Shown here: one piece after another, positions 6,095 through 38,334 of the stretch
Position numbering within the stretch: the stretch's first letter is position 1
Layout: each line of letters opens with the position of its first letter
Source of the DNA: a virus
IMG/VR virus record: IMGVR_UViG_3300039106_000244
Coordinates: 1-64,000 of that record
Strand: one strand, 5' to 3'
DNA length: 64,000 bases
Translations under genes and position numbers: made by a program
Notes under the pieces: model-generated
Seen by the model: only the letters and a program-made list of their open reading frames with translations
Told to the model about the DNA's origin: nothing
Databases searched by the model: none

Positions 6095-6765
6095 TGGCTA
6101 TTATTCCATATAGTAAATGAATGTATTGCCATTTCTTTACGGTCGAATATACGACATATAACTTTTGGTTTGGCTATTCCTAAACCCTGACCTGCATGTG
6201 CGGCTTTATTATTTGCTCTATGTGTATCTGATTGTGCTTTACCTTTATTCCAAGCAATCTGTTCGCCTACTTTACCTTTGTTATGTGCAACCTGCACTCC
6301 TTTCTTACCTTTATTCCAAGGAGCAGTTCCTTTCTTAGATTCGCTAATTCTTCGTTTATGTTCGTCTGATTTAACTCTGCCTTTGTGCGCAATCGAGCGT
6401 TTCATTTTTGCTTCATCTGACTGTGGGCCAAGTTTCTTACCTTTAAATATACATGGTCTGTTTAAGCCAGTAAACTTGCCATCACCATTGTGTTGATTGT
6501 AGCTTAAAGGGTCGTTTTTAGCGTCTACAAGCGTTAGTAATGCGGTCTCTAATGCTAACATATCAACAGCGTGGCCAATGCACAGCACAGTTCGGGACCA
6601 ATTGGTTTGGTTGGATTCAATCAAAGGTTTGACTATGCGACTACTGCAAATATAACCATCTGCGGGGTTACAGCCGAGCTTAGTGCGTGAGCCAATATAC
6701 CAACGTCCGGTTGATAATTCTGTCCACTTATAAACATAAGCATAGGTAGGTGAGGTTAAATACAT
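6076..6765 (-). CDS. Free-standing GIY-YIG (Seg-like) homing endonuclease with NUMOD3-like and (P/A)WNKG repeats
   Basis: YVYKWTELSTGRWYIGSR, Y..SS, LETALL, YNQHNG, then HKGRVKSDEHKRRISES and PWNKGKK/AHNKGK/AWNKGK. The start is probably ATG 6765, since ATG 6774 is only 2 nt from AGGA. Confidence 0.85.
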   Translation of the reverse strand: MYLTSPTYAYVYKWTELSTGRWYIGSRTKLGCNPADGYICSSRIVKPLIESNQTNWSRTVLCIGHAVDMLALETALLTLVDAKNDPLSYNQHNGDGKFTGLNRPCIFKGKKLGPQSDEAKMKRSIAHKGRVKSDEHKRRISESKKGTAPWNKGKKGVQVAHNKGKVGEQIAWNKGKAQSDTHRANNKAAHAGQGLGIAKPKVICRIFDRKEMAIHSFTIWNNSQNKSAN

Positions 6766-6834
6766 TGCTGACATAGTCCTTTATGTTAGAGTAGTCGGAT
6801 AGTGAGATATCGTGGACTACACATCTATTTATCA
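6763..6834 (-). ncRNA. Candidate structured 5' leader, copy A
   Basis: TGATAAATA..GTAGTC-CAC-GATA-N6-TATC-C-GACTAC-TCTAAC..AGGA..TCAGCA; same geometry as copy B at 38251, with compensatory changes. Confidence 0.7.
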
Positions 6835-6843
6835 TTTCTCCAA

Positions 6844-6872
6844 TTGACATCCCCGAACTTCTATGTTATAAT
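6844..6872 (+). promoter_or_regulatory. Consensus sigma70 promoter with extended -10
   Basis: TTGACA-N17-TATAAT with TG; back-to-back with the endonuclease promoter. Confidence 0.9.
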
Positions 6873-6898
6873 ATGCTTTACAATAATATGGTATCGAT

Positions 6899-7204
6899 AT
6901 GGTAGAATTTAAAATTAAGAAGATGGATGCAAGGTATAACGGCAGTGGATACTTTACTCACGTAATAGACTACGGTGGCAAGTATGGTACAAGTTTAACC
7001 TTTCAACAGCATCGAGTTTGGTTCTGGGAATCATTTGGTCCAAGTTGCGAGATTGAGGCGTTTATGCGGCTTGGAAAGAACAATCATTCTCAACCAGATT
7101 GTATTAGTGGTAATTGGGCATGGAATACAGAGTTTGGTAATAGAAAACTTTACGTAAGAGATGAAGCAACCCTTGCGTTCTTTACACTGAAATTTTTAAC
7201 TTGA
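6899..7204 (+). CDS. Hypothetical phage protein
   Basis: 101-aa ORF with its own promoter; Trp-rich, ends FFTLKFLT. Confidence 0.75.
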   Translation: MVEFKIKKMDARYNGSGYFTHVIDYGGKYGTSLTFQQHRVWFWESFGPSCEIEAFMRLGKNNHSQPDCISGNWAWNTEFGNRKLYVRDEATLAFFTLKFLT

Positions 7205-7229
7205 CAACAACAGAAAATGGTAGTATAAT
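7201..7229 (+). promoter_or_regulatory. Consensus sigma70 promoter, near-copy of 4868-4896
   Basis: TTGACAacaacagaaaatggtagTATAAT versus TTGACAaaaagagaaagtggtagTATAAT. Confidence 0.9.
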
Positions 7230-7260
7230 AGTCTTTATAGTAAACGATTAGGAGTAGTAA

Positions 7261-8541
7261 ATGTCTACAGCAACAGCAACAACTAGCACAGAAAAGAAAA
7301 AAGTAGTTACAGTAACAGATGCACGTATTGATGGTATAGTACGTGAAAAACTTATTACTGCACGTATTGCGCTATTACTTAAAGCGCCGTTTTTTGGTAA
7401 CTTAGCGACACGGTTAAAATTAGTAAACGCAGATGAGTGGCTTACTACTGCGGCTACAGACGGGCGCAACTTTTATTACAATAGTGAATTTGTAAACAAA
7501 CTGCCTCAAAAACAAGTGGAGTTTTTAGTTGGGCACGAAGTGTTACACGTAGTTTACGATCACATGGGACGTAGACAAGATAGAAATCCTCAACTGTATA
7601 ACATTGCGGCAGACTACTGCGTTAACGCTGACTTAATCGATAACAGAATTGGTGAAAAAATTACAAGTGTGCCTATTTTGTTTGATAAGAAATATGCAGG
7701 TATGAGCTCAGAAGAAGTGTATGACTTGCTATACGAAAATGCTGAGAAAATTGACATTAGCGAGTTGCTTAAACAAATGTTAGATGAACATTTAGATGAT
7801 GGCGACGATGATGGTGAAGATGGTGAAGATGGGGACAAAGAAGGTAAAGGTAGTCGCCCAGGTAAAATGACTGCTGAAGAAAAGAAAGCATTGCGTGACG
7901 AAATACGCGAAGCTGTATTGCAAGCGGCAGAAGCGGCGGGTGCAGGTAACTTGCCAGCTGGTGTTAAACGTATGATTAATACGCTTACAAACCCACAATT
8001 AAACTGGCGTGAGTTGATTCGTCAACAAGTACAAAGTTTAGTAAAAGCCGACTTTACTTGGGCACGTACGAATCGTAAAGGGCAACACTTAGATGCGATT
8101 TTGCCTGGTAATAATTTTGCAGAAACAATTGATGTTAGTGTTAGTATTGATGCGTCAGGTAGTATGAGCAACGAAATGTTACATGATATCTTAAGTGAAG
8201 TTAAAGGTATTATGGAAGCGTTTGATGACTTCAAACTTGATGTATGGACATTTGATACTAACGTTTACGGGTACGAAAAATACACGCCAGACAACATCGA
8301 CGATATTGACAGCTACGAATTACAAGGTGGTGGCGGTACAGACTTTGAATGTAACTGGGAATTTATGCGTGAAAATGAAATTGCGCCTAAATTGTTTATT
8401 ATGTTTACAGATGGATACCCAGGGGGCGGATGGGGTGATGAGAATTACGCAGATACATTGTTTGTAATTCACGGTACTACAAGTATCGAAGCACCATTTG
8501 GTATTACAGCTTATTATGATTTATCGAAAGGAAGTAATTAA
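7261..8541 (+). CDS. DUF2201-type metallopeptidase-like plus VWA domain protein (MoxR partner)
   Basis: TAATDG, HEVLH (HExxH), NIAAD, acidic linker, MIDAS DASGS, GGGGTDF and FTDG. Confidence 0.9.
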   Translation: MSTATATTSTEKKKVVTVTDARIDGIVREKLITARIALLLKAPFFGNLATRLKLVNADEWLTTAATDGRNFYYNSEFVNKLPQKQVEFLVGHEVLHVVYDHMGRRQDRNPQLYNIAADYCVNADLIDNRIGEKITSVPILFDKKYAGMSSEEVYDLLYENAEKIDISELLKQMLDEHLDDGDDDGEDGEDGDKEGKGSRPGKMTAEEKKALRDEIREAVLQAAEAAGAGNLPAGVKRMINTLTNPQLNWRELIRQQVQSLVKADFTWARTNRKGQHLDAILPGNNFAETIDVSVSIDASGSMSNEMLHDILSEVKGIMEAFDDFKLDVWTFDTNVYGYEKYTPDNIDDIDSYELQGGGGTDFECNWEFMRENEIAPKLFIMFTDGYPGGGWGDENYADTLFVIHGTTSIEAPFGITAYYDLSKGSN

Positions 8542-8852
8542 TGGCAACCTATCAAAGTTTTTCGCATAGCCCAACCGAGTATGCGGCTGCACTAACCAAC
8601 CAGACTCATGTAACACTCGGTTGGTTAGTCAATCGTAATTATATCACTGAAGAGGCTTATGAAGAGTTAGTAAGCACACTGATAGTAGCTAATGTACAAC
8701 ATCACAAAAGTTGGGGCCAAAAGGTGATAGAACATTTATTTAGTAAAGAGTCAACTGATGATGCCTGGGTGTTTCCACTTGTGCTAGTAGATAAATTTGT
8801 TAAGCAAGACAAATTACCCAAACCAACCAAACCAAAGTTGGAGATTGTGTAA
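8541..8852 (+). CDS. Hypothetical protein
   Basis: ORF coupled by TAATG to the upstream gene. Confidence 0.7.
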   Translation: MATYQSFSHSPTEYAAALTNQTHVTLGWLVNRNYITEEAYEELVSTLIVANVQHHKSWGQKVIEHLFSKESTDDAWVFPLVLVDKFVKQDKLPKPTKPKLEIV

Positions 8853-9200
8853 GTGACAATTAACGCTTACATTTTTGCTTGGGACAATACAGGCATCGAA
8901 GCTGTTATTCCAATTACGCAGTATGAGCAAGTTGATCGCGATAACACAATGCGCATACTAGGTAATGAGCCGACTATACGTAATCCGGTGAATGGTATTT
9001 TACAAATGCTGATACTACGTGCTAAAGCAAATCCGCAACGTCACTATGAAATCTATAGTGTGGATTGTAATATTGAGTTAGATGAAGAATACTGGAAAGA
9101 AGCATGGGAAAGTGATCCGCAAGGGTGTGCTGACTTAGTGCGTGAACGTGGCATTAAATTATACAGTGACAGACAAACGTCTAAGCCTGTAATTAGTTAA
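8853..9200 (+). CDS. Hypothetical phage protein
   Basis: GTG start with GGAG RBS; contains LILRAKANPQRHYEIY. Confidence 0.75.
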   Translation: MTINAYIFAWDNTGIEAVIPITQYEQVDRDNTMRILGNEPTIRNPVNGILQMLILRAKANPQRHYEIYSVDCNIELDEEYWKEAWESDPQGCADLVRERGIKLYSDRQTSKPVIS

Positions 9201-9208
9201 GGAATAGT

Positions 9209-9445
9209 ATGAACGAACGAATTAGAGAAATTGCAGAACAAGCTACAATTCAAGAAGGCAGTCATGGTGCGTTTGGTGAACCAACTATAAATGAATATGT
9301 TGATTTAGAAAAGTTAGCTGAGTTGATTGTTCTTGAAATGTGTAATGTGTTAGACAAAGCACAGTGGGACAAAGGTGAAGATTGGGTCTGTGCTGATGGC
9401 ACACGGATCATACCGCAGATTAAAGAACATTTCGGAGTTGAATAA
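9209..9445 (+). CDS. Small phage protein, MNERI...KEHFGV family, copy 1
   Basis: Shares MNERI, EK.AELI and IKEHFGV blocks with the next ORF. Confidence 0.8.
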   Translation: MNERIREIAEQATIQEGSHGAFGEPTINEYVDLEKLAELIVLEMCNVLDKAQWDKGEDWVCADGTRIIPQIKEHFGVE

Positions 9446-9657
9446 TGAACGAACGAATTAAAGAACTATTGTTAAAAGTTGTTCATATGCAAGGTGAGGA
9501 TGGTGAATATTTGCCGTCTTTAGTTACAGAAGAACACATAGAAAAGTTTGCTGAGTTGATTATTAAAAAATGTTGCAAAATGATGATTGATTTAGAAATC
9601 AAATATCCAGCTAATCTTACTGTGCGAGATATTAAAGAACATTTTGGAGTTAAATGA
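9445..9657 (+). CDS. Small phage protein, MNERI...KEHFGV family, copy 2
   Basis: Tandem paralog of 9209-9445. Confidence 0.8.
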   Translation: MNERIKELLLKVVHMQGEDGEYLPSLVTEEHIEKFAELIIKKCCKMMIDLEIKYPANLTVRDIKEHFGVK

Positions 9658-9869
9658 TGGATAAACAGGAATTATGCGACCAGCTTAAAGCTATCTCAGA
9701 TAGTATTGCAAAACTTGAATCTAGCTTGCCGTATGATTATGAACAGCATGACCCGGACAATGCGTTCTTAGCAGAAATACGCCAGAACATTTACGTGGTA
9801 CGCAGACAGCTTGGTAATGTACGTGAATCAGTTAAAGATCCACGCAATTGGATAAGGGGATGTAAATAA
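9654..9869 (+). CDS. Hypothetical helical protein
   Basis: ATGA overlap and GGAG RBS. Confidence 0.7.
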   Translation: MMDKQELCDQLKAISDSIAKLESSLPYDYEQHDPDNAFLAEIRQNIYVVRRQLGNVRESVKDPRNWIRGCK

Positions 9870-9878
9870 TGGAGTTAA

Positions 9879-11369
9879 GTGATTAATAAAAAAATTCTTT
9901 GTTTAGGAAATAGCTCCGAAGATACCGACCTCAGAGCTAAACAAATTGCGTACGAGCAAAATTTGTCTTATCACGGACTATTAACCGAATTTAGAGATAC
10001 AGTTGCAGGATGTTATCAAACCAGTGTGTATGATATGGCATATGGCGAGTTGATTGAATTAGCTAATAGTATAGATGAATTAATAATTTTAGATCAGGCC
10101 AAAGAAACGTATTTAGATGAACATGCGTTTTATCAAACTATAAGTTTAGGTAAACAATTAAAGTCTATATGCAATGTTATATTTTTAGATACGTCATTTA
10201 ATGATACAATTGAGGACGAGTTAAAAACAAATAAAAGTATATGCATATTACCGTTTATACAGTCAGTTACTATAAATGGCAATTTACATACTTGCTGTAG
10301 ATCTGATAATCCTTTATCAAAATTTGATCCGTTAATTAAATATTCTGATGATAGTAATCGCAATTTAATTAAGCAGAAAATGATAGCAGGTGAAAATTTA
10401 GATCACTATTGTAAAATATGTTATGATCTCGAAGATAAAGAAATTGTAAGTCCGCGAATTACACAAACAATCGAATGGGCAAATAGATTAAACATAAAAA
10501 ATATCAATGAATTAAGTCAACTAACTGGTCCAATATATTATGATATACAAGCAGGTAACAAGTGTAATCTAATGTGTAGAATGTGCAATTCCGATTATAG
10601 TAGTCTAATTGCAAAAGAAAATCAGAAACTAAAAATTGTTAATGATACCGATTATCAATACACTGGTTTTGATATTATTGATATTGAGAAAATAGAAAAA
10701 TTATATGTTGCAGGTGGTGAGCCGACAATTATGCCGGAACTGCATAAATTTTTAGAAGAATGTATAGCAAAGAAAAAAACAAATTTTGAAATACAACTTA
10801 ATACAAATGCAGTATCATTGAGTACTAAATTTAAATCTCTTATAAAACATTTTAGTAATTTTAATTTTGAAATTAGCGTCGACGGATATGACTTGGTTAA
10901 TCAATATATTCGGTGGCCTACTAAGTGGAATAAATTAATTAATAATATTGATTATTTGCATAACGCAGGATATAAAATATCATTTAATTCTGTTGTTTCA
11001 ATATATAATATTGCTAGTTTACATTCAACTATTAATTTTTTAAGCAATCGTTATAAGAATTTGCCAATACATTTAACTGAAGTAGATTTTCAAGATAATA
11101 TATTATCACCGTATGTATTTCCAAATGCTACACTTGTTATTGTTGAGTTAGATAAAATTAAAAAATTAGATGCATATAAAAATGATCGTGTATTAAAAAG
11201 TAAGATAGATGAATACTTAGATTATTTTACAAATAGTCATAAGGTTGATTTAATAACGCTAGCGGCATTTTTTAAGTACAATGATAAATTAGATGTAGCA
11301 AGAGATATACAGCTGGTAGATTATATACCAGAATTAGAACAATGTCGGTTAATAAAAGGAGTTAAATAA
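9879..11369 (+). CDS. Radical SAM enzyme with N-terminal twitch/SPASM-like Cys cluster and an extra N-terminal domain
   Basis: CILPF..TCC..CKIC followed by CNLMCRMC, AGGEP, LNTN, SVDG and YIRWP. Confidence 0.88.
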   Translation: MINKKILCLGNSSEDTDLRAKQIAYEQNLSYHGLLTEFRDTVAGCYQTSVYDMAYGELIELANSIDELIILDQAKETYLDEHAFYQTISLGKQLKSICNVIFLDTSFNDTIEDELKTNKSICILPFIQSVTINGNLHTCCRSDNPLSKFDPLIKYSDDSNRNLIKQKMIAGENLDHYCKICYDLEDKEIVSPRITQTIEWANRLNIKNINELSQLTGPIYYDIQAGNKCNLMCRMCNSDYSSLIAKENQKLKIVNDTDYQYTGFDIIDIEKIEKLYVAGGEPTIMPELHKFLEECIAKKKTNFEIQLNTNAVSLSTKFKSLIKHFSNFNFEISVDGYDLVNQYIRWPTKWNKLINNIDYLHNAGYKISFNSVVSIYNIASLHSTINFLSNRYKNLPIHLTEVDFQDNILSPYVFPNATLVIVELDKIKKLDAYKNDRVLKSKIDEYLDYFTNSHKVDLITLAAFFKYNDKLDVARDIQLVDYIPELEQCRLIKGVK

Positions 11370-11782
11370 TGCCAACATATTGGAATACAATACAGAAAAT
11401 TAAACGTGTAGAAGCCATGGCAAATAAGATGGGCTTTGAATTTTCTCCAGGACGAGGTCACTACATAGATAGCGGCGACTCTATTCATCTCGTTCCATTA
11501 GGCGATGCACTTCCACACTACAGACGTGGTGCTGAGATTTTTAGTGGGTCAGTCGAAGACATTGGTACTTGGTTAGAAGGATTACTGTGGGCTCGTAACT
11601 ATGATGAGATGCTTAGAGTTAGCAATGAAAAGAAACGTACAGAACGTGAACAGACTGAACGTAACAAACAGTTAATGAAAACGATTAAGTCAGGTAAGTT
11701 AGTCGAAGGTCCACTCGGATATGGTGATGACGATGACATCGATTCGGACGAAGAAGATGAATATGATCAAATCCCATTTTAG
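11369..11782 (+). CDS. Hypothetical protein with an acidic SSB-like C-terminal tail
   Basis: Ends GDDDDIDSDEEDEYDQIPF. Confidence 0.75.
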   Translation: MPTYWNTIQKIKRVEAMANKMGFEFSPGRGHYIDSGDSIHLVPLGDALPHYRRGAEIFSGSVEDIGTWLEGLLWARNYDEMLRVSNEKKRTEREQTERNKQLMKTIKSGKLVEGPLGYGDDDDIDSDEEDEYDQIPF

Positions 11783-11791
11783 GAAAATATA

Positions 11792-12247
11792 ATGACAAAA
11801 CTAATCGACGCATTGCCAGACGCATTAACAGACTGCACTAAAGAACAAGCACCGTGGACTACATTAGTAGAAGAGGATTTCCACATTGCTATTTTCAAAG
11901 ACGGTTTTCCTGTTAGTAATGGCCACTTGCTCTTTGTGCCAAAGTATAATACAATAGATATATTAGCCGACGCAGTAGCCGATGCTGTTGCACAAGGACA
12001 ACGTTTAGTAGCCACAGGTAAGTGCGATGGATACAACATTGGTATTAATATTGGTGCGGCGGCCGGACAAACAGTTGCGTGGCCACATGTGCATATGATT
12101 CCGAGGTACGAAGGTGATGTAACTGACCCACGTGGCGGTGTACGAAATGTTATTCCTCGCTTAGGCAATTACAAGCGTGAAGGTATTAGTGATGCGTATG
12201 ATGAAGTAAACAAATGGTACGGTGGTTTTGGTGATTCACGAGATTAA
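11792..12247 (+). CDS. HIT family nucleotide hydrolase
   Basis: DGFPVSNGHLLFVPK and GYNIGINIGAAAGQTVAWPHVHMIPR (first His of the triad replaced by Trp). Confidence 0.88.
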   Translation: MTKLIDALPDALTDCTKEQAPWTTLVEEDFHIAIFKDGFPVSNGHLLFVPKYNTIDILADAVADAVAQGQRLVATGKCDGYNIGINIGAAAGQTVAWPHVHMIPRYEGDVTDPRGGVRNVIPRLGNYKREGISDAYDEVNKWYGGFGDSRD

Positions 12248-12753
12248 TGGAGAATAAAATGAACTTAAAAGATTTCATGGAAGTAATTGATTACAAAATC
12301 ACAGAAGGTAGTGAGTATCAGTGGTCTTGTTTTGGTAACAATGCATACACATTAGATAGTTGGAATGGCGAACAAGACGGGCATACTGTATCAGCAATAT
12401 TTGATACTAAAGATCAAACGGTATATACAATGATGGCATATGATTACATTGCAAATCGTGCATATCGTTGGATGAATCCAGAGTTTATTACAGTTTATAA
12501 AGCAGAATGTGAAAGCAGAAACTGCAATGACGAAGCATGGGAACATGTTGAATATGTTGACTTAGAAGTCGAAGAAGACTTTTTAGAAAAAGCACGTGCA
12601 ATCGTATTAGGGTCAGACTACGATACACGTATTCAAGTTCCGTTAGACTTTGACAAAGAAACAACGTTTCAACTTATGCAACTTGCGCACAAAGCAGACT
12701 TAACGCTTAATAAGTATGTTGAGAAAATTCTACGTGATGAATTAGGAGTATAA
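12247..12753 (+). CDS. Hypothetical phage protein, possible C-terminal ribbon-helix-helix
   Basis: 168-aa ORF with C-terminal IQVPLDF..LMQLAHKADLTLNKYVEKIL. Confidence 0.7.
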   Translation: MENKMNLKDFMEVIDYKITEGSEYQWSCFGNNAYTLDSWNGEQDGHTVSAIFDTKDQTVYTMMAYDYIANRAYRWMNPEFITVYKAECESRNCNDEAWEHVEYVDLEVEEDFLEKARAIVLGSDYDTRIQVPLDFDKETTFQLMQLAHKADLTLNKYVEKILRDELGV

Positions 12754-12754
12754 T

Positions 12755-12919
12755 ATGAATCCAGATAAAAATGAATGGGGTGTATGGAAGACTGCATATA
12801 AACACGTAGTTACAGTTCCGGGTGGTCATGTGTTTATTAATCCTATCGAAGAGCGATTAAAGACTGGTGACTTTACAGAAGCCAATGCTGAACTTGCTCG
12901 CATTATGAAGTTGAAATAA
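12755..12919 (+). CDS. Hypothetical 54-aa protein (not in ORF track)
   Basis: MNPDKNEWGVWKTAYKH...ARIMKLK; AGGAG RBS and TAATG coupling to the next gene. Confidence 0.7.
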   Translation: MNPDKNEWGVWKTAYKHVVTVPGGHVFINPIEERLKTGDFTEANAELARIMKLK

Positions 12920-13137
12920 TGTTCGAATATAGTTGGGACCTAGACACAAATGATCCAATGATTATATTGTTTAAGCATAACAGCAAAGTGGTGCAACGTG
13001 TATTTCTTGGTGAGGCAATGGAAATGGCAGGTAAAACTGCCGTAATGAAACATGTTAATGCATGCAATAATACTCCATGGCTTATTACGTGGCATGACGA
13101 AATGTGGACTGCTCTTAAAGATACAAAGGCGATATAA
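12919..13137 (+). CDS. Hypothetical protein
   Basis: Translationally coupled ORF. Confidence 0.65.
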   Translation: MFEYSWDLDTNDPMIILFKHNSKVVQRVFLGEAMEMAGKTAVMKHVNACNNTPWLITWHDEMWTALKDTKAI

Positions 13138-13589
13138 TGGAAGAAGTTTATTACAAAAAAGTTGGTAATAAGTATGTTGCAGTTAGTTACTACAATCACG
13201 AAGTTATGGATAGTGTCCCGCTTGGCTCGCATCTTATAATTAAGCGTGAAGGAAGTACAAGTCGACGCAACAATATTACTCCAGCGTTTGCTCCTATGAT
13301 TGCAGCTGGATATTATGCCGAGTCTGCCATCGTTGCGTCAATTGTAAAAGCAAGTGAGCTACGTCCGACTAATAAACTGCCGTTAACTCCTAAGCAAGCA
13401 GAAGCGTGGCATGCGTTAGCGGAAGCGTTTGGTACAGAAACACATGCGCTGACTTATGGTAGCTATCAAGATGCGGCTTCAGCGGGTGTTAAAGCAATGA
13501 CTGTCGAAGCAGAGAAGTTACTTGCGCATCCATCGGTACGTGCCGCATATAATCACTTTTTACTAACTTGCGAGCTTGTTAATGCTTAA
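13137..13589 (+). CDS. Hypothetical phage protein
   Basis: Coupled 150-aa ORF. Confidence 0.7.
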   Translation: MEEVYYKKVGNKYVAVSYYNHEVMDSVPLGSHLIIKREGSTSRRNNITPAFAPMIAAGYYAESAIVASIVKASELRPTNKLPLTPKQAEAWHALAEAFGTETHALTYGSYQDAASAGVKAMTVEAEKLLAHPSVRAAYNHFLLTCELVNA

Positions 13590-13875
13590 ACACAATGAGC
13601 CAAACCCGTTAAACATACACGGGTTACGACAAGTTAATCACTGTCCGCCGCACTTCACTCCTGTGATATTTAATCTTGTAGTACAAGAGAAAGACTTAAT
13701 CGACTGGCTATATGAAAACTTAGAAGGACGTTTCTACTCTGGACAAATTGATGTTAGACAAGAGTCTGGTGTTATCGCACGTCAGCAATGTATTGCATTT
13801 GAACAATCCTCTGAAGCGAGCTATTTCGCAATGTTCTTAACACAAATTAATTCAATAAAATACCTTATTTTCTAG
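13582..13875 (+). CDS. Hypothetical phage protein
   Basis: ATG at 13582; contains PNPLN..PPHF..WLYENLEGRFY..AFE..EASYF. Confidence 0.7.
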   Translation: MLKHNEPNPLNIHGLRQVNHCPPHFTPVIFNLVVQEKDLIDWLYENLEGRFYSGQIDVRQESGVIARQQCIAFEQSSEASYFAMFLTQINSIKYLIF

Positions 13876-13936
13876 AAAATATTTCCACCTGATATAAGTT
13901 GGTTAAATACAGTTGTCCCTAAGGAGAACTTTTTAA

Positions 13937-14191: not shown

Positions 14192-14192
14192 G

Positions 14193-15650: not shown

Positions 15651-15679
15651 TTGACCTTTAAAACTATCACTGTTATACT
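15651..15679 (+). promoter_or_regulatory. sigma70-type promoter, probably giving a leaderless thyA mRNA
   Basis: TTGACC-N17-TATACT with TG; the ATG is 6 nt after the -10. Confidence 0.7.
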
Positions 15680-15685
15680 ATTAGT

Positions 15686-17529: not shown

Positions 17530-17530
17530 A

Positions 17531-26803: not shown

Positions 26804-26811
26804 TATAAATA
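26804..26811 (+). promoter_or_regulatory. T4-late-like promoter TATAAATA
   Basis: Exact TATAAATA 5 nt before ATG 26817. Confidence 0.65.
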
Positions 26812-26816
26812 TAAAC

Positions 26817-30391: not shown

Positions 30392-31033
30392 TTAAATCCA
30401 TCCCAGAGACCTAATATGTTCATAAATTTTATCCGCTACTACTTGATGTCCTGCTTCTAAGAAATGTCCGCCTGGACCACGCGGTGTAGCATAAGTCCAA
30501 TCTGTCATATTATCTTTTAACCAACCAATATAATATCTATGGTCAACTTGGTTTAGTAATTGCATAATTTGCGCATCAGTTTTAAAATCACCGAAATTAT
30601 TACCAAACGAATCGAGCATTAGATATTGTTTATTTTGTTGTTGAATAAAATGCTGTATTAATAATATGTTAATTAAATATTGTCTATACAAATAATTATC
30701 ATCGTGATATCGGTTGATATAGTTTAATAGGTCTGCTCTATATGATATTGGACCATTAAACATAACTCCACTGTGTCCGGGCCACGTATCATAAACGCCA
30801 TAGTTGTCAGCAAATTCAATTCTAGCATAATGGCTCCACGCAATGATAATCAAATCATAATCTGCAGCATGTTCTACTACGTTCCTAATCATACTAGTAT
30901 TACCAGTCGATGATTTGCCAAGATTTGTTAATTCGCATGATAATTTATTTTGTAAAACATATGGCCATGCCTGTTTAATATCTGTTAACTCATCGCCATA
31001 TGTAAAACTGTCACCAACCGTTAATATTTTCAT
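30392..31033 (-). CDS. SGNH-fold protein
   Basis: VGDSFTYG, NLG...GN, IIAWS..R and GGHF...H. Confidence 0.75.
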   Translation of the reverse strand: MKILTVGDSFTYGDELTDIKQAWPYVLQNKLSCELTNLGKSSTGNTSMIRNVVEHAADYDLIIIAWSHYARIEFADNYGVYDTWPGHSGVMFNGPISYRADLLNYINRYHDDNYLYRQYLINILLIQHFIQQQNKQYLMLDSFGNNFGDFKTDAQIMQLLNQVDHRYYIGWLKDNMTDWTYATPRGPGGHFLEAGHQVVADKIYEHIRSLGWI

Positions 31034-31131
31034 TTGTAAATAAATGGATCACGTTTGCGTAATTCTTTTAATTTCTTACGGTATCGTATTTCTAATGTAA
31101 TTCTATTGTATAAATTCGTTAACCAATTCAT
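31030..31131 (-). CDS. 33-aa basic peptide ending PFIYK (SxtK/DUF5989-like; not in ORF track)
   Basis: MNWLTNLYNRITLEIRYRKKLKELRKRDPFIYK; AAGGAG RBS and ATGA overlap with the downstream gene. Confidence 0.75.
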   Translation of the reverse strand: MNWLTNLYNRITLEIRYRKKLKELRKRDPFIYK

Positions 31132-31924
31132 TGTAGTTCTCCTTAATGTAGTTCATGGCATCAATGTGTGCTGGCTCCAATGGGTGTGTAGTAGCAAACG
31201 GGTATTTAAAATCTCTAGCCCATGTATAAAATCCCTGATTGTTTGGAAAAGTAACCCACCGATTAAAATCAAGTTGATTGTATAATGTTATTATATTTTC
31301 GTCATTCATTAAATGGGTACAATTATTCAACAATGCTTCATCAACCATCGAAAATATATATGGTATTTTCTTTAATTGTAGATATTGTTGCAACATGGTT
31401 ATTTCTGTTAGCGAATTATATGTTTCCCAATATGCAGTTGACCCAATATGTTTATAAAAGGTTTTAGCAAAATCTGCTGTGCCAGTTTGTTTAGCTCGTA
31501 ATAAATGATTAGTATGATGCTGTAATATTGCTGTATTATTAGTTTTAAATTCTTTTTTTATTTGTTCTACATCATCAATGATGGACCATGGATTTAAATT
31601 ATACCAATTTCCCCAACGCTCACCTGTATCATAATCAAATCTAAATTCGTATCGGCCCGGAAATGTCCATGTTACAAAAACTAATCCTACATCTTGTAAT
31701 TTTTCACATGCATTCATAACAGTGCGGCGAATTGCACTATTACTAAATCCCGGATAGGCTACGCATTCGTACTGCATATTAAAATCTTTAGCCAAAAGCG
31801 CAGTAAAGGTTGATTGGCTAACAATTGGGCGGGCTGGTTCGGTCCCATTGGGATCAAATGGTGTAACTCCATCAGCAAGTTCACTACCGTATGTAAAACT
31901 ATCGCCCCCGGCTACTAAAATCAT
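31103..31924 (-). CDS. SGNH-fold protein
   Basis: GGDSFTYG, PGFSN..I.R, VTWTF..R and THPLEPAH. Confidence 0.75.
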   Translation of the reverse strand: MILVAGGDSFTYGSELADGVTPFDPNGTEPARPIVSQSTFTALLAKDFNMQYECVAYPGFSNSAIRRTVMNACEKLQDVGLVFVTWTFPGRYEFRFDYDTGERWGNWYNLNPWSIIDDVEQIKKEFKTNNTAILQHHTNHLLRAKQTGTADFAKTFYKHIGSTAYWETYNSLTEITMLQQYLQLKKIPYIFSMVDEALLNNCTHLMNDENIITLYNQLDFNRWVTFPNNQGFYTWARDFKYPFATTHPLEPAHIDAMNYIKENYNELVNEFIQ

Positions 31925-33018
31925 ACATATCCTCGTTTGATATGTTGTACTTGTAAGTCTATATAATTTGCATCAGACCAATTATACCGATAAGTTGCAG
32001 ATGCATGACTAGTTCTTATATTATACACATCTAAATGTAATCCGAGTCGGTTCCATATAATATTATAATCATCCGACCCAAATGTTCTATGTAAGTCGAC
32101 TTGTCCTACTTGCGGATGGCCGATTGTCAATGATTTATCATTTGGATCAAATCCATTATCTATTAGCCATTGAGTGAAATCTGTGAGCTCTTTTTTCATC
32201 CAAGAAAAATTACCAGGACTAAGTGCCCACTCAATATCAAAATCTCCGGCGGCTTCGGTTTGTGATCGCATCGCCGATGTCGTTAAATCATCAATGGTAT
32301 GCCCTCCTTTACCTTCATCACGAAAGACTTCGTAATGATGCTTGCCAATGGCTTTATTGACTCCAACAAATACGCCACCTGCTGGTCTATTTAAACTTTC
32401 AATTCCAAATAATTCAAAGTCATTAGCATCCAATGTAAATCGTGGTGCATTCAACCAACACATTAATTGACTAGGTCGACGCCATTCCGGCGCATGAATT
32501 GCTTTACGCATACTTAATACAAGCGACTCATACTCGTGACATAATAAATTTAGCTGGCGGATGTGCCATTTAATAGTATCAGTGGCCTGATTATAATATT
32601 TAGACATGTGTCCACTTACACCTTGTAAATCTTCAAAGTATCTATGTAAATGATTTAATTTGTCGTGTACTAATTTGCCACCTTCGAGAAATTCGCCAAC
32701 CGGACCGGGCACTATAGTATTTTCTACAGTAAAATGATCAGTAATTTGGTATCCAAGGTCTGCTTGATTTATTGCAGCTATTGATAAATTGATTTGATTA
32801 GTAATATATTCTGCATTACGTTCCGATTCGATAAATCCGTGAAAGCAGTAATTTTTCTCAAGGTGATAGTTATTTTCTATTAGATTGTTTAGGGCCGATA
32901 GCCATTTACGACTAAGCGAGCTATCAAATATATCAATATATACTGTTAAGAGTTTATTAGTTTTATTATTTTTTAAATCAATTTCAATTTGATCAAGCAA
33001 TGTTGTTGTACCACTCAT
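31921..33018 (-). CDS. Hypothetical protein in the radical SAM cluster
   Basis: 365-aa ORF with LNHLHRYFEDL, LNLLCHEYES and GKHH motifs. Confidence 0.75.
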   Translation of the reverse strand: MSGTTTLLDQIEIDLKNNKTNKLLTVYIDIFDSSLSRKWLSALNNLIENNYHLEKNYCFHGFIESERNAEYITNQINLSIAAINQADLGYQITDHFTVENTIVPGPVGEFLEGGKLVHDKLNHLHRYFEDLQGVSGHMSKYYNQATDTIKWHIRQLNLLCHEYESLVLSMRKAIHAPEWRRPSQLMCWLNAPRFTLDANDFELFGIESLNRPAGGVFVGVNKAIGKHHYEVFRDEGKGGHTIDDLTTSAMRSQTEAAGDFDIEWALSPGNFSWMKKELTDFTQWLIDNGFDPNDKSLTIGHPQVGQVDLHRTFGSDDYNIIWNRLGLHLDVYNIRTSHASATYRYNWSDANYIDLQVQHIKRGYV

Positions 33019-34294
33019 ATACTTCCGGTCTCTCTTTTAAGATGTCTGCTAATGTATACGTATCACCACGAATACTTTCTAATTGTAGCACACGAGCCTT
33101 ACCTTTTGCAAGACTTACTTTATATGTATCTGGCCATTGCTCATCAAATGTCGGTCGTGATTTTAACTGTACAAGTATATCTTGCATAGCACCAGAAGTT
33201 TGTGGTATTAGTTCATCTAACCATGGATGTAATAACTTGCGCGGCAGTGCCAAGGGACTAAGAATAATATCAGGGCTAAAGCTAAAAACAACTTTAGCCA
33301 ATATATCTACTTTTTCTTCGTTAGCAAGCTGGGTAATGTTAATAACTTCAAACATTCCCGGCATTGTGAGTGTGAAGTCGATTCGCATTTGTCTGCGGTT
33401 AGTTGCAATTTTAACTCCTTCACGGAAGTTTTCAAGCCATTGACTATAATTAAGTCCTGTTCTAATATATTCGCCAATGCGACCAGTTCCGTCGAGACTG
33501 GCACAGATTTGCCAGTCACGTAACCTAGATAAAATATCGCTGAAGAGATTGATGCCACGATAGTCGATGCGGCTAAGATTAGTATTGTACCTTGCATAAG
33601 CATTCTTTCCATCTCCCAAATCAATTATGCGTTTCATATAACGCCAATGCTGTTCGTACATTAAGGGCTCACCGCCAACCCAATATACTTCCTCAACTTG
33701 ATGATTCTCGACTGCTTGAGCAAACTCCTGTTCAATTTGACTATCTTGAAATTTTGATATTTCGCTTCTCACTTCGGGCTTCATCCAATTATTCTTTGGA
33801 TTGTGCCAATTGATCATATTATGTTGTTTTTGTTCAGTTTCCCAAGCACTTGACAACATATCGCCACACATGCGACATTTAAAGTTACATAAGTTACTAA
33901 ATCTATAATCCCAACTTATAGGACGCATAGTTGTATAACCTGTTTCGTCTGTTGTTTCTATTACTTGCAAATATTTATTTTCGAACATTTGATCAAAATA
34001 ACTACGGTAAACTGATGTATTCAACAGCTTATCATTACATACTTCGCACTCTGGGAGGGTTTCCCCAGCAATCATGCGACGACGGACCGACCGCATGTGC
34101 TCGCTATTCCAGTGTTCATCCAGAGTTATTGGAATGTATTTGCCCGTTCCGGCTTTTGTATCAATATACTGCTGAAAGTTTTGCGCAGGTTCGCGACTAG
34201 CACAGCACATACGTCTTTCTGTGACAGGGCTTAAATAGGTATGGAGAAATGGCGCAAAACAGAAATTCTCTGGCGGCTTTTTAGGAATTGACAT
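32993..34294 (-). CDS. Radical SAM enzyme with N-terminal twitch-like Cys cluster
   Basis: CFAPF..MCC..CEVC followed by CNFKCRMC, VGGEP, YNTN, SLDG and YIRTG. Confidence 0.92.
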   Translation of the reverse strand: MSIPKKPPENFCFAPFLHTYLSPVTERRMCCASREPAQNFQQYIDTKAGTGKYIPITLDEHWNSEHMRSVRRRMIAGETLPECEVCNDKLLNTSVYRSYFDQMFENKYLQVIETTDETGYTTMRPISWDYRFSNLCNFKCRMCGDMLSSAWETEQKQHNMINWHNPKNNWMKPEVRSEISKFQDSQIEQEFAQAVENHQVEEVYWVGGEPLMYEQHWRYMKRIIDLGDGKNAYARYNTNLSRIDYRGINLFSDILSRLRDWQICASLDGTGRIGEYIRTGLNYSQWLENFREGVKIATNRRQMRIDFTLTMPGMFEVINITQLANEEKVDILAKVVFSFSPDIILSPLALPRKLLHPWLDELIPQTSGAMQDILVQLKSRPTFDEQWPDTYKVSLAKGKARVLQLESIRGDTYTLADILKERPEVYEWYNNIA

Positions 34295-36836
34295 AACCCA
34301 TTGCTAGTGCAATTTCCTTATGTGTTGTTAGCATACTTTGTTCGCGATATGCATCTGTCTGTTGCATTTTTTGTAAGAATTCTGTACCATCACTTCCTGC
34401 GCCGTTTTCAATGAACTGAATTATTTTATCAATTTCAACACGATGCTTAACATTAAATGGGTAATCATTCAATCTATCTATAACTAATTTTTGTGCGGCT
34501 GGTGTCATACGATTAATACACATAACATTTGGGTCATGCAACATATTAAAATGCACCATGTCAAATTGTTGAGTATTAACCCAGTCACATAGCTCAGGTA
34601 GATAGTAAACATTTTGTATGTTTATAGTCATGCATACCTGTGTTTGAATTAGATTAGTTTTCATTGCATTAAATTTTATAACATTGGTTTTTACTTCGTC
34701 CCACACAGCACCATAACGTTCATATTCAAATCGTGCTTCGATATTATCTATGCTAACTGCAATTTCAATGTTTCTAAATTTACCCCATAAACTTACTTCT
34801 TCGTCTGAGGGATATACAGTACCATTAGTATTATAATGTATATCTATACGTTTACTATATCCATGTTCTACTGCATAACGTAATAGTTTAAAGTGTTCTT
34901 CAATTAAGAATGGTTCGCCACCTGTAAATTCAAAGTACTTGATGTTTGGTAATAGTTCTTTTAAATTTTCCCAGAACACTTCACTTTCTCTTGGCCAAGT
35001 TCCTTCTTGTAAGAACATGTATGCACTATGTTGTTTGCGGTCATATCCTTGTACGTCTTTGTATTTTCTAGCTTCGTAATCAATTTCTTCTTTGGCCCAT
35101 TTACTGCTAGACCACGAGCCACATATACGACATTTAAGATTACAGATGTTGCCTAGCTTAAGATCAATAAACCAAAGTTGGTCAGGTTTATCATTCTTCC
35201 AATCAACAATAGGATAAAACTCTTTAAGTCTAATTCTGCTATTAATACGCTTACTAACTATACCGGCATCTTCTTCCTTCCAGCAACGATTACATGTAGA
35301 TGGCTTTTCACCCCGACGGAATTGTTGTCGTAAGTCTTGCATATATTCACTGTTGTAAATTTCTGCCAATGAACTTTCTTTTAGCTTATACGGTGTACCA
35401 TCACTTTTAGTAATCTCATCTGTTGCTAAACAACATGGGCGAGCTGTGCCAACCGGACTTGCTTCAATACTAACCCACGGTAACATACAAATATTATCGT
35501 GTGTCTTGTTAATACCTAAATGATCACGTAACTCTTTATATTCCGGAAACACTTCTTCAAATGTTTCTTTTCTCATTGAATCAGTTTGATCATTTATCTT
35601 AAAGAATTCTTTTAATAAGTGACTTTTGTCGTCTTGATACATAAATGTAATAATAGCTTTATAACCCGAGATAGCTCGTTGCAATTGATCTTGTGGTGCA
35701 AGCCATGCGATATGTTCTTCGACACGTTGTTTAATTCTATCTTTAAATTGAATTGGTAATACATCAATACGATCGCGTTCCGGACTCTGTAGAATGTTTA
35801 CGTTCCAATCCATTGCTTTAATTAAGCCAAGTTCGACCCATTCTTTATGGAATTCTGTTAAATGCCATGCATTAAGTATACTAACTGTACTGCTAACATA
35901 AAAGTCAACATTAGGACAAATTTCAATCATTTTGCGGCGATTTTCTACTGTTTCTGCCCAGTCTTGACCCTTGCGGATATATTCTCCACGAAGATAAGAA
36001 TCATCTAAACTTGCGCCTACACTTACTACATCAAATAGTTTCCAGTATTCAAACACCATCTTATCTTTAAGACGAATGTGACTAAAGTTTGTATTATATA
36101 CTAATCTAACATGGAACATTTTACGTTTAACTAATTCTTCTAGTATACGATAATGTTCTTCCATGATAAGTGGCTCACCACCAGCAAAGTAAATTTGTTC
36201 TAAGTAAGGGATATGTTCTTGCATCTGCTCCCACATATCATCTTTCTCTTTACCAGCAAACATAATTTGTGGGTGATTTAACTTACCAAATAGTTTTGTT
36301 TCTTCGGCAAACCAACTACTACTAAACAAACTACCACATGTTCTGCAGCTGAAGTTACATAGATTACTAAAGCGTATGTCATAGTAGCGTAATTTAAAAT
36401 CATCTAAACTACCATCTGGATTAGTTTTGTCTGTTAGTGCAATATGATGTCCGAAGTTTTTATTTTGGCTATTGCGCATTGAAAAGAAGCCGTTGTCTTC
36501 TTGTTCATAACAACGTGTACATTCTTTAGAAGGCTTATCTTCTAACATATTGATACGCATTTGTTTGTACGGAGTACCATTCCATACTTCTGCCATTGTA
36601 TTTTCTTTAAGATTACCTATAGGCAAATGCATCTCACCTAAACAACAAGGATATGCTCTGCCATCTGGGATACCATGCATGTGTGTCCACGGTATCATAC
36701 AGAAATATTTACTTTCTATTAATTTATATGTATGGTCTTCTGTTAAATCATCTTCATGTATGTACACTGGCTTACGTGTATTGTAATTGTGATTTTTATG
36801 ATGTACTGTTAATTTCTTGCTTGGCTCATCGCTCAT
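34281..36836 (-). CDS. Tandem double radical SAM enzyme
   Basis: Two full units: CMIPW..PCC..CTRC..CNFSCRTC..GGEP and CMLPW..PCC..CNRC..CNLKCRIC..GGEP. Confidence 0.93.
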   Translation of the reverse strand: MSDEPSKKLTVHHKNHNYNTRKPVYIHEDDLTEDHTYKLIESKYFCMIPWTHMHGIPDGRAYPCCLGEMHLPIGNLKENTMAEVWNGTPYKQMRINMLEDKPSKECTRCYEQEDNGFFSMRNSQNKNFGHHIALTDKTNPDGSLDDFKLRYYDIRFSNLCNFSCRTCGSLFSSSWFAEETKLFGKLNHPQIMFAGKEKDDMWEQMQEHIPYLEQIYFAGGEPLIMEEHYRILEELVKRKMFHVRLVYNTNFSHIRLKDKMVFEYWKLFDVVSVGASLDDSYLRGEYIRKGQDWAETVENRRKMIEICPNVDFYVSSTVSILNAWHLTEFHKEWVELGLIKAMDWNVNILQSPERDRIDVLPIQFKDRIKQRVEEHIAWLAPQDQLQRAISGYKAIITFMYQDDKSHLLKEFFKINDQTDSMRKETFEEVFPEYKELRDHLGINKTHDNICMLPWVSIEASPVGTARPCCLATDEITKSDGTPYKLKESSLAEIYNSEYMQDLRQQFRRGEKPSTCNRCWKEEDAGIVSKRINSRIRLKEFYPIVDWKNDKPDQLWFIDLKLGNICNLKCRICGSWSSSKWAKEEIDYEARKYKDVQGYDRKQHSAYMFLQEGTWPRESEVFWENLKELLPNIKYFEFTGGEPFLIEEHFKLLRYAVEHGYSKRIDIHYNTNGTVYPSDEEVSLWGKFRNIEIAVSIDNIEARFEYERYGAVWDEVKTNVIKFNAMKTNLIQTQVCMTINIQNVYYLPELCDWVNTQQFDMVHFNMLHDPNVMCINRMTPAAQKLVIDRLNDYPFNVKHRVEIDKIIQFIENGAGSDGTEFLQKMQQTDAYREQSMLTTHKEIALAMGYVNS

Positions 36837-38209
36837 AGTGTGTCGTACCAGTCTGCTAATTGTGTAAATGTATATTTAAAGTCTTTGCCACGACGTTGGT
36901 CGTATTGTTGATAAAAGTTCTTAAAGTCACGCTGTAGTACCTCGCGTGCCAATGCTTCGCTATGCGGAGTATCCACTGTTTCTAAGTATGTAATTAATCG
37001 TCGTAGTTGATTATATTCATATTCATGCATAAAATCTACAGCAACATCGCCGAAGATACGCAATTCATCTGCGTATTGTTTACGCATTTCTAACGGTAAT
37101 ATCAATGGGCTTTGGAAACTAGGAAAACGTAAGATGTTAAGGCTAAAGTTAATTGCATCCTCGCCGTACTTCTTTTTAAGATTAACAATCATCCATAAGA
37201 ATTCTGTTAAGCTCGATAAGCACAATGCATTAATGGTACACATAACATGAAGCCCACGTAATCGTTTACTATCTAATAACCACATAACATTTTGACACCA
37301 CTGATCCCAATCTAGTCCATCACGAATATATATTGCATGTCTACCGATGCTTTCGTTGCTAGTGTATAAATCTAATTCAGTACCTTCTGTGCTATCTAAT
37401 AATCGTTCTAATACTTCGCGGTCAACTCCTAGATTACTATTAATAGCTAAACGTGTTTTACTAGTGCCTTTGTTTTCTTTAAACCAATCAAACAGGCGCC
37501 ATGTGTAACCCGACATCAATGGCTCGCCGCCGGTAATGCGTAATTCTTTTAATGTTTTGTGTAAGTCTGTTTCCCACCATTTGAAGAACGCTTCCACATA
37601 TGGATTAACTTCATTGAGTTTGAACAGTTGACTACTATCATGAACGTGAGTAAAATGATTCCTACCGTCTGATACCAAACCTGTGTATGCACCGCTTGTT
37701 TTAATGTCTCTGACCCAGGCGCTACTAAAAGCAGGGTTGCAGTAACTACAAGCAAATTGGCAAGTGCGGTCAAAAGAAATTTCCAATGTTTGCAAATTAA
37801 CGTCTTCGTTTGCAGGTAAATTGTATGCATAATCTAAATCCTCATCATTATAAATTACTGTTTTGTATACACGGTCACTAATCGGTACAGGAACATCTAC
37901 ACCATTGTACTTAGAACCCTTGTACATGTCTTCTATCTTCCAGCAGTAATCACACCCTGCAGGTCGTTCACCCTCTTGCATTTGCTTACGTTCTAATTTC
38001 TTTTGTGGCGTGTTATGTAATGCACTTGGGTTTGTTTTAATTGCTTCTAAGTCAATTGCATGAGGTAATGGATGATGACAACTTGTAGTCTGACCTGAGC
38101 CCAACCATATAGTTGCATTGTACCATTTAGCCGCACAGAAACTAGCTGACTTAATGTCAATTACTCTACGCTTATATTGTATATCTGATTCGTTATTAAT
38201 TCTCGGCAT
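36833..38209 (-). CDS. Radical SAM enzyme (CxAKW subtype)
   Basis: CAAKW..SCHHP..CDYCW, CQFACSYC, TGGEP and YIRDG. Confidence 0.92.
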   Translation of the reverse strand: MPRINNESDIQYKRRVIDIKSASFCAAKWYNATIWLGSGQTTSCHHPLPHAIDLEAIKTNPSALHNTPQKKLERKQMQEGERPAGCDYCWKIEDMYKGSKYNGVDVPVPISDRVYKTVIYNDEDLDYAYNLPANEDVNLQTLEISFDRTCQFACSYCNPAFSSAWVRDIKTSGAYTGLVSDGRNHFTHVHDSSQLFKLNEVNPYVEAFFKWWETDLHKTLKELRITGGEPLMSGYTWRLFDWFKENKGTSKTRLAINSNLGVDREVLERLLDSTEGTELDLYTSNESIGRHAIYIRDGLDWDQWCQNVMWLLDSKRLRGLHVMCTINALCLSSLTEFLWMIVNLKKKYGEDAINFSLNILRFPSFQSPLILPLEMRKQYADELRIFGDVAVDFMHEYEYNQLRRLITYLETVDTPHSEALAREVLQRDFKNFYQQYDQRRGKDFKYTFTQLADWYDTL

Positions 38210-38215
38210 TTAGTA

Positions 38216-38244
38216 ATTATAGCAGGAACAATGAAGATTGTATA
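38216..38244 (-). promoter_or_regulatory. sigma70-type extended -10 promoter, leaderless geometry
   Basis: Minus strand TATACA-N17-TATAAT with TG, 6 nt before ATG 38209. Confidence 0.7.
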
Positions 38245-38250
38245 TCTTTT

Positions 38251-38334
38251 TGATAAATAAAAATGCAGTTCACGGAAGTGGAATTCCTAACTGCTCTAAC
38301 GTTCAGGAGAACAATCAGCATGAATATTTATCAA
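38251..38334 (+). ncRNA. Candidate structured 5' leader, copy B
   Basis: TGATAAATA..GCAGTT-CAC-GGAA-N6-TTCC-T-AACTGC-TCTAAC-GTTC-AGGA-GAAC..TCAGCATG. Confidence 0.7.

Follow-up and report, generated by a model that had tools for sequence, protein, structure and literature searches.

A portable cassette with covarying hairpins and facing late-promoter motifs heads homing endonuclease genes of uncultured lake phages and may make an antisense RNA

To our knowledge, only a few T-even examples show how homing endonucleases, the most common selfish genes of large phages, are controlled. Here we describe a portable cassette of about 85 bp that heads homing endonuclease genes and that, as we propose with moderate confidence, makes a small antisense RNA restraining the nuclease. 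Two copies lie in the stretch of DNA analyzed, positions 1 to 64,000 of IMG/VR virus record IMGVR_UViG_3300039106_000244 (64,000 nucleotides; hereafter the window), in front of two nuclease genes, A and B. Late promoters combined with hairpins at the ribosome-binding site have been described for T4 gene e, I-TevI, I-TevII, I-TevIII, Aeh1 mobE and T4 segB (PMC3014915). These genes resemble ours in phage lineage, gene class, a late promoter immediately 5' and RNA structure at the ribosome-binding site, and the aim would be the same, to hold nuclease translation down; however, the inhibitory 5' arm of the T-even hairpins lies at or upstream of the late promoter, and late transcripts escape it (PMC3014915). 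The cassette also has a late-promoter motif directly upstream, NATAAATA, 3-5 nt before the structure and in a phage with a gp55 homolog, but both of its hairpins lie 3' of the promoter, and selection acts on them as read from the opposite strand. No 5' arm at or upstream of the promoter was found, the sole candidate being an ATAAATA-TATTTAT pairing without covariation.

The proposed mode of repression would be like that of RNA-OUT on the IS10 transposase and of SymR on SymE. In the RNA-OUT/RNA-IN system of IS10/Tn10, the enzyme gene of a selfish element is opposed by a ~69-nt antisense RNA whose stem-loop is perfectly complementary to the translation initiation region, blocks ribosome binding and can act in trans on other copies (PMC5006887). 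The cassette differs in having T4-type late promoters that a phage sigma factor would read, in that its RNA would have two hairpins and cover the whole 5' untranslated region, and in being common to unrelated nuclease families in lytic phages; its antisense RNA is, moreover, a predicted one. In the symE/SymR pair of E. coli, a toxic nuclease-like gene contains a reverse promoter, and the antisense RNA made from it has complementarity to a long leader, whose Shine-Dalgarno sequence it covers, but the pair is a single chromosomal locus under SOS control and is not portable, and SymE acts on mRNA (PMC3874152, including its Table 2). SymR and the cassette have no sequence or structure similarity. 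The cassette is a member of neither system, and we liken it to both by analogy in mode of action.

Two further comparisons come from T4-like phages. The only antisense RNA opposite a homing endonuclease gene of such a phage found in the literature searched is CfrI of cyanophage S-PM2, which unlike the RNA predicted here is ~225 nt long and links the nuclease gene to psbA (PMC2984593, PMC12197685). Our covariance model (R1) gave no match on the S-PM2 genome (AJ630128) at E up to 1, whereas in a positive control it found both copies in their own genome. PeSL cassettes of T4-type phages are, like ours, recombination-mobile units of ~100 bp that place a promoter and stem-loop at gene starts, but they have sigma-70 early promoters and G/C-tract terminator stems and are associated with ORFans; the portions of these reports consulted mention no link to nuclease genes and report neither a covarying two-hairpin fold nor a facing promoter pair (PMC2839356, PMC4122927). 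A literature search found no paper describing the cassette itself.

The first-pass annotation of the window had claimed two leaders, copies A and B, with a common spacing of 6-3-4-6-4-1-6 and four compensatory pairs between them. On rereading both strands, we found both copies with exactly the positions and letters claimed (Table 1), the spacing the same in each, and two outer and two inner pairs altered on both sides between A and B. In each copy, TGATAAATA is separated by a 5-nt spacer from a 6-bp stem; CAC, a 4-bp stem and a 6-nt loop follow, then the return strands, which contain one extra base, and TCTAAC. A short hairpin around the Shine-Dalgarno sequence and CAGC(A)ATG come next. The core degenerate pattern matched twice in the window against 0.00 matches expected (100 shuffles), and both a regular expression and the covariance model gave a copy number of two in the whole 117,015-bp record.

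Homologs of these leaders were collected with two patterns. Pattern 1, a DNA pattern that imposes no pairing, matched at least 120 IMG/VR stretches, and nearly all of the 140 matches listed hold the full cassette; pattern 2, which fixes only the commonest main hairpin and forces neither promoter motif, matched at least 119 metagenome stretches. When homologs were fetched by protein, the leader was present in 19 of 52 loci. Among contigs of bacterial and archaeal genomes, 106 of the 108 parsed matches to pattern 1 were unpaired chance matches (12 of 120 loci did not match the stricter parsing pattern and were left out), so the search pattern does not create the structure. The other two were full cassettes (L328 and L415), one of them on a 2.2-kb contig of an uncultured Bacteroidetes bin; these are probably phage contigs binned with their host, and as such a possible host lead.

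Covariation across 123 homologous leaders is strong and bears out the conserved structure proposed in the first-pass annotation; this structure lies behind a T4-type late promoter. In the alignment of these leaders, 96.7% of cells are paired compared to 71.4% in shuffles, with none of 500 shuffles as high; double-sided changes occur in 314 cells (shuffles, 93), and sliding the register lowers pairing to 30-47% of cells. A model-based alignment that adds hairpin 2 showed double changes at 12 of 13 pairs, and the ten strongest pairs by mutual information were all predicted pairs, with no pseudoknot or loop contact detected by mutual information beyond the three helices. What had been read as a CAC bulge (CRC in the family) contains an extra purine-pyrimidine pair between its middle base and the opposite single base (on the gene strand, G-C in 85 copies, A-U in 12, A·C in 26 and G·U in 0), and what remains of the bulge is therefore two invariant single-base bulges, seen in copy A of the antisense reading as a single bulged G on either side of the middle pair. 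We set aside the idea that the loop of the main hairpin is a protein site, either CsrA-type or loop-specific, as the loop columns are not conserved (entropy 1.4-1.6 bits). By column entropy, conservation stops sharply at both promoter motifs, and the edges of the conserved block form a 7-nt inverted repeat, extended to 9 nt in copy B. Outer-stem and backward-motif counts given below leave out three chance matches (L083, L120, L151) and three loci in which the hairpin is present and the downstream part replaced (L064, L145, L156); counts of antisense-hairpin closure leave out L067, where TAGC replaces CAGC and which was unparsed.

Searches for known relatives of the structure were negative. Rfam 15 gave no match to the 64-kb window at gathering score, and in E-value mode both 201-nt copy regions returned only noise (best E 0.37; 9.6-18.5 bits versus cut-offs of 35-298). 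Megablast of both gene neighborhoods against 50,697 isolate phage records found no match, and neither did a word-11 blastn search of the 50,697 phage records with a high-scoring cassette, a weak search given its 106-nt query that leaves absence unproven. The covariance model found no match in the T4 genome.

The cassette is portable among unrelated nuclease families, since HNH-type and NUMOD3/GIY-YIG open reading frames (ORFs) both carry it: among 114 downstream ORFs, we counted NUMOD3 in 49, HNH in 12, HNH_3 in 9, HNH_5 in 8, GIY-YIG in 10 and SegE in 3. The leader is thus not peculiar to GIY-YIG genes, and because unrelated families have it in common, it is also unlikely to be an autoregulatory site for the endonuclease itself. 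Several contigs hold more than one cassette at short distances from each other (L097, with three in 11.8 kb, L141, with three, and L032, L054, L059, L060, L065, L077, L113, L121 and L128), and some of the copies on such contigs have CTAAATA or GTAAATA instead of ATAAATA in the sense promoter. Two close relatives of gene A (L001 and L003) are 97-99% identical to window positions 6076-6934 over the cassette and 94-96% over the first 300 nt of the gene, but only 74% and 54% over the 3' half of the gene, a drop that suggests exchange of the DNA-binding half of the nuclease. In a separate observation, seven loci (L064, L145, L156, L078, L058, L159 and L166) have no nuclease gene or a shortened one after the cassette (ORFs of 4 to 49 amino acids), so the hairpin and promoter can outlive the gene.

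The exceptions to Watson-Crick pairing indicate which strand folds. In the outer stem, read on the gene strand, they comprise 23 A·C and no G·U among 122 copies (18 of the 39 distinct outer stems have A·C and none has G·U). An A·C on the gene strand is a G·U on the other, and the molecule under selection is therefore read from the strand opposite the nuclease gene. The extra pair of the CRC segment has the same asymmetry, and in the metagenome set (113 independent copies) inner pairs 2 and 3 show five A·C and no G·U. On the antisense strand, moreover, TCTAAY and YCAG become partners: CUGRY...RUUAG closes hairpin 2 into a single helix of 8-10 bp, with one invariant G·U and a fifth pair that is C-G in 23 copies, U-A in 38 and U·G in 58. 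On that strand, CAG and CTAAY bound a segment that closes into a single hairpin in 119 of 122 copies, whereas on the sense strand it does so in none of the 122 (mean energies -5.8 and -2.3 kcal/mol, respectively); in the metagenome set, closure was found in 111/113 copies on the antisense strand versus 0/113 on the sense strand. The claim that the fold under selection is that of the mRNA is therefore not supported, as every wobble-type exception is A·C on the gene strand, and TCTAAY and CAGC pair on the opposite strand only. The loop of antisense hairpin 2 begins with CCUU, complementary to the Shine-Dalgarno sequence, so that the antisense strand has a conserved structure complementary to the ribosome-binding site, as a cis-antisense RNA would. 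A strand test by minimum free energy, applied only to the inner part of hairpin 2, was tried and discarded; it misleads unless the flanking TCTAAY and CAGC are included.

A second promoter-like motif lies at the other end of the cassette. TATTTAT just 3' of the start codon is the reverse complement of ATAAATA, and NTAAATA accordingly faces back from codons 2-4. This backward motif (TA[TC][TA]TA on the gene strand) was found in 118 of 123 copies, and in 115 of the 118 parsed copies it stands 4-6 nt after CAGC (5 nt in 89). It occurs in three reading frames, at offsets 5, 3 and 4 from the start codon in 89, 21 and 6 copies, and codon 2, where variable, keeps T as its third base (judged by eye), both of which argue that the motif is conserved as DNA. 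In the metagenome set, where neither motif was forced, the sense motif is ATAAATA in 83 copies, CTAAATA in 18 and GTAAATA in 5, and the antisense motif varies similarly (ATAAATA in 59, GTAAATA in 40, CTAAATA in 5). The late promoter of Aeh1 is CTAAATA, and the T4 late motif lies at -13 to -6 (PMC1524935). Applied here, the T4 rule would put the mRNA start at the first base of the main hairpin and the antisense start one base ahead of the 5' hairpin, at the G that faces the C of CAGC. For copy B, this predicts a start at G 38319 and an RNA of ~69 nt ending at ~38251; for copy A, whose TTAAATA is a variant at -12 with 4-nt spacing to GCUG, the predicted start is at ~6767-6768. On the antisense strand, the main hairpin is followed by a U-rich tail, the complement of the sense promoter and its A-rich spacer, with 6.6 T on average among the 12 nt that follow the hairpin versus 2.5 after TCTAAY on the sense strand (metagenome set).

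From these features, we infer the following mechanism. Each nuclease gene is headed by a portable cassette set between two facing late-promoter motifs, of which the left, NATAAATA, would drive the nuclease mRNA and the right, NTAAATA, would fire back toward it, both late in infection. The right promoter would start an antisense RNA of 65-70 nt, with a 5'-terminal hairpin, CUGRY...RUUAG, that shows CCUU in its loop, one nucleotide further on an 11-12-bp hairpin with two invariant bulged G, and at its 3' end the U-rich tail, where transcription would stop. Fully complementary to the 5' untranslated region of the mRNA, this RNA would pair with it, cover the ribosome-binding site and hold the nuclease low.

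Several observations weigh against this proposal. Folds of the single window copies are not decisive (z -0.9 to -2.6; for copy B, -17.4 kcal/mol and z -2.57 on the antisense strand versus -14.2 kcal/mol and z -0.94 on the sense strand), and for the inner part of hairpin 2 on its own, the sense strand gives the better fold in 83 copies versus 25. Strand-biased mutation could contribute to the excess of A·C, though it would not account for the invariant wobble. The backward motif is a perfect ATAAATA in only 73 of 118 copies, its core is altered (TACTTAT, TATATAT) in another 17 of 118, copy A has TTAAATA at 4-nt spacing, and at 36% G+C an 8-bp AT-rich motif is easily found. As a putative terminator, the bulged and only moderately stable antisense hairpin (mean -10.0 kcal/mol) is weak, and a simple terminator scan of both copies did not flag it. 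Contigs from RNA runs (X19, X20) lie over radical SAM genes and none over the cassette or nuclease gene, which says nothing either way. Finally, the upstream neighbor is on the opposite strand in 85 of 118 cassettes, and read-through from phage genes could supply the antisense strand without a promoter of its own.

This last point leads to an alternative that we consider unlikely, namely that the antisense-strand structure acts inside read-through transcripts of flanking genes, as a terminator, 3' stabilizer or insulator, and not as a separate small RNA. The cassette would then be a PeSL-like composite of terminator and promoter, in which an outward early promoter restarts the interrupted operon; PeSLs are a known precedent for stem-loop-plus-promoter cassettes in T4-type phages (PMC2839356), and the U-rich tail 3' of the antisense hairpin fits such a role. 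Both neighbors are opposite in 52 of the 74 cassettes for which both flanking ORFs and the nuclease ORF were called, but 33 of 118 cassettes run in the same direction as their upstream gene and have the same structure. Both window copies have an outward sigma-70-like promoter 7-10 nt from the cassette, aimed at the next gene of the interrupted operon. Among opposite-oriented cassettes, such a promoter (at least 10 of 12, within 70 nt upstream) was found in 27/84 compared to 3/84 on the control strand; in those 27 it comes after the hairpin and U tail on the strand of the flanking genes. The cassette's own promoters are late-type, and 57 of the 84 have no strong outward promoter. Nor does a plain terminator need two invariant bulged G, a second hairpin with an invariant wobble, or a promoter-like motif at fixed spacing in three frames.

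The insertion boundaries of copy B bear on the same question. In a nuclease-less allele from a related lake phage, a DNA contig from run X2 (depth 31.9; shorter side 67 letters) joins position 38209 to 38935 with five other letters between them, and the insert accordingly begins ~40 nt upstream of TGATAAATA. The cassette is thus not the end of the insert, contrary to the suggestion that it serves as a DNA end-signal of the mobile unit. In that allele the radical SAM genes are 5 nt apart, so the insert would have to restore downstream expression, as action within read-through transcripts would have it. Depth over the nuclease gene (38376-38911) was 0 or near 0 in four runs (one bin 0.97), whereas the cassette bin retained some depth in those runs, as expected if the cassette also heads other genes in those phages.

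Less probable still, in our view, is that both hairpins work in the 5' untranslated region of the nuclease mRNA, as the first-pass annotation had it. One hairpin would then be a 5'-terminal stabilizer, and the other would expose or mask the Shine-Dalgarno sequence, perhaps with a protein bound. With a 5-nt spacer, the predicted sense start does coincide with the first base of the main hairpin, but 3-nt spacers put the distance-set start inside the stem (~24 of 123 copies, by eye). With Watson-Crick pairs throughout in most copies, the mRNA would fold too, and on the sense strand U·G pairs are added in the inner part of hairpin 2; however, neither the stem nor the extra pair has a G·U on that strand in place of its A·C exceptions, and TCTAAY and CAGC are without a sense partner in either set of leaders. 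The T-even and Aeh1 nuclease genes offer a precedent for late promoters with ribosome-binding-site hairpins (PMC3014915), but since both hairpins of the cassette lie 3' of the promoter, the T4 logic of a late start that skips the 5' arm is inapplicable.

We regard as very improbable an action at the level of DNA, whether as a recombination hotspot or cruciform for swapping regulatory heads or through ATAAATA-TATTTAT pairing in read-through mRNA that closes the start region as in T4 gene e and I-TevI: the inverted repeats around the conserved block (7 nt, 9 nt in copy B), the occurrence of the cassette in unrelated nuclease families, leaders 97-99% identical beside gene 3' halves of 54-74%, and the precedents of PeSLs and the T4 gene e hairpin are in its favor, but strand-asymmetric wobbles point to RNA and not to duplex or cruciform DNA, the long-range helix does not covary (flanking pairs versus shuffles 31/73 vs 36.0, 32 vs 30.5 and 27 vs 28.0), and the partner base is uncompensated in 4/4 copies with a CTAAATA or GTAAATA promoter. 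Without covariation in flanks or promoter variants, the ATAAATA-TATTTAT pairing was rejected as a main explanation.

If the cassette does make an antisense RNA, that RNA could reach beyond its own gene. The invariant segments (base of the 5' hairpin, CCUU loop and bulged-G helix) are present in all cassettes, so that RNA from one copy could damp every cassette-bearing nuclease. On this doubtful extension, the RNA would be a trans-acting brake common to all cassettes in a genome and in co-infecting phages and not a private regulator, and by analogy with multicopy inhibition of IS10 it may serve as copy-number control. The two invariant bulged G might then be a docking site for a phage or host protein that speeds pairing.

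The genomic setting is compatible with late transcription of this kind. The record, a linear fragment in IMG/VR with 36% G+C, is estimated to be ~33% complete, and the phage is thus probably a jumbo phage of roughly 350 kb. One freshwater metagenome run shares 0.98 of the record's sampled words (near-identical DNA) and may be the sample behind its assembly, and lake-water and freshwater-sediment runs share 0.13-0.23. A gp55 homolog and NATAAATA motifs directly 5' of many ORFs make T4-type late transcription plausible in this phage. Genes A and B are both antisense to their neighbors, an AAA ATPase gene and a DUF2201 gene for A and two radical SAM genes for B. Their proteins are very divergent, as had been noted (28% identity over 145 amino acids), and both match PHROG 314 ('homing endonuclease') significantly. 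The description of both as GIY-YIG endonucleases holds for homing endonuclease, whereas the GIY-YIG label is weak: NUMOD3 is the only significant Pfam domain in either protein, with GIY-YIG in protein B at E 0.024 (15.4 bits versus a curated cut-off of 22.6) and SegE_GIY-YIG in protein A at E 0.14, likewise below the curated cut-off. A PDB sequence search with protein A gave no match. For gene A, ORF calling gives a start at ATG 6774, and family comparison puts it at ATG 6765. Two further nuclease-like genes, outside the window, lack the cassette; in each, a plain NATAAATA promoter precedes the start codon by a few bases.

Table 1. Features of the two cassettes, their nuclease genes and related genes. 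Positions are those of the window unless given as of the record; SL1' and P2' are the main hairpin and the predicted 5' hairpin of the antisense reading.
Feature	Position	Strand	Remarks
Copy A, whole	6834-6763	-	read from sequence
Copy A, sense late-promoter motif TGATAAATA	6834-6826	-	U-rich tail of the antisense reading includes its complement
Copy A, main stem GTAGTC-CAC-GATA-tctcac-TATC-c-GACTAC	6820-6791	-	after 5-nt spacer
Copy A, TCTAAC	6790-6785	-	
Copy A, second hairpin ACATA/TATGT around AAGGAC		-	then CAGCA and ATG 6765-6763
Copy A, main hairpin SL1' (6 bp + 1 bp + 4 bp), antisense reading	6791..6820	+	covariation, A·C/G·U counts, fold
Copy A, P2', predicted 5' hairpin of antisense RNA, CUGAC-AUAG...UAU-GUUAG	6768..6789	+	loop is Shine-Dalgarno complement
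Copy A, putative backward promoter motif TTAAATA	6756..6762	+	codons 2-3
Copy B, whole	38251-38334	+	read from sequence
Copy B, sense late-promoter motif TGATAAATA	38251-38259	+	
Copy B, main stem GCAGTT-CAC-GGAA-gtggaa-TTCC-t-AACTGC	38265-38294	+	
Copy B, TCTAAC	38295-38300	+	
Copy B, second hairpin GTTC-agga-GAAC	38301-38312	+	then CAGC and ATG 38320
Copy B, main hairpin SL1', antisense reading	38265..38294	-	then AUUUUUAUUUAUCA (38264-38251) on same strand
Copy B, P2', predicted 5' hairpin of antisense RNA, CUGAU-u-GUUC-uccu-GAAC-GUUAG	38296..38318	-	
Copy B, backward TGATAAATA	38325..38333	-	codons 2-5; exact 9-nt inverted copy of sense promoter
Copy B, whole inserted unit (outward promoter, cassette, nuclease gene)	38210..38934	.	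absent from related lake phage
Copy A, outward sigma-70 consensus promoter	6844..6872	+	12 of 12, TG-extended; aimed at next phage gene
Copy B, outward sigma-70-like promoter	38216..38244	-	10 of 12, TG-extended
Gene A, homing endonuclease	6076..6765	-	NUMOD3, PHROG 314; GIY-YIG-like N-terminus
Gene B, homing endonuclease	38320..38913	+	NUMOD3, PHROG 314
gp55-family late sigma factor gene	76998-77336 of record	+	E 6.6e-24
Cassette-less nuclease-like gene, GIY-YIG-like (MTYEFPWIYNG...)	81202-81546 of record	+	
Cassette-less nuclease-like gene, HNH plus NUMOD-like (MFIENKYKRWY...)	82508-83040 of record	-	

One portable RNA cassette thus heads hundreds of nuclease genes in uncultured lake phages, seemingly selected on the antisense strand. 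By comparing A·C with G·U exceptions, a 'leader' could be moved to the opposite strand with nothing but sequence to go on. Were the antisense RNA to prove real, it would constitute a new and abundant RNA family absent from Rfam and a general means for phages or selfish genes to cap nuclease toxicity, and the cassette would offer a compact natural pair of facing late promoters for the study of T4-type late transcription. Should the RNA also act in trans, phages and selfish genes would be contesting the cassette rather than the nuclease.

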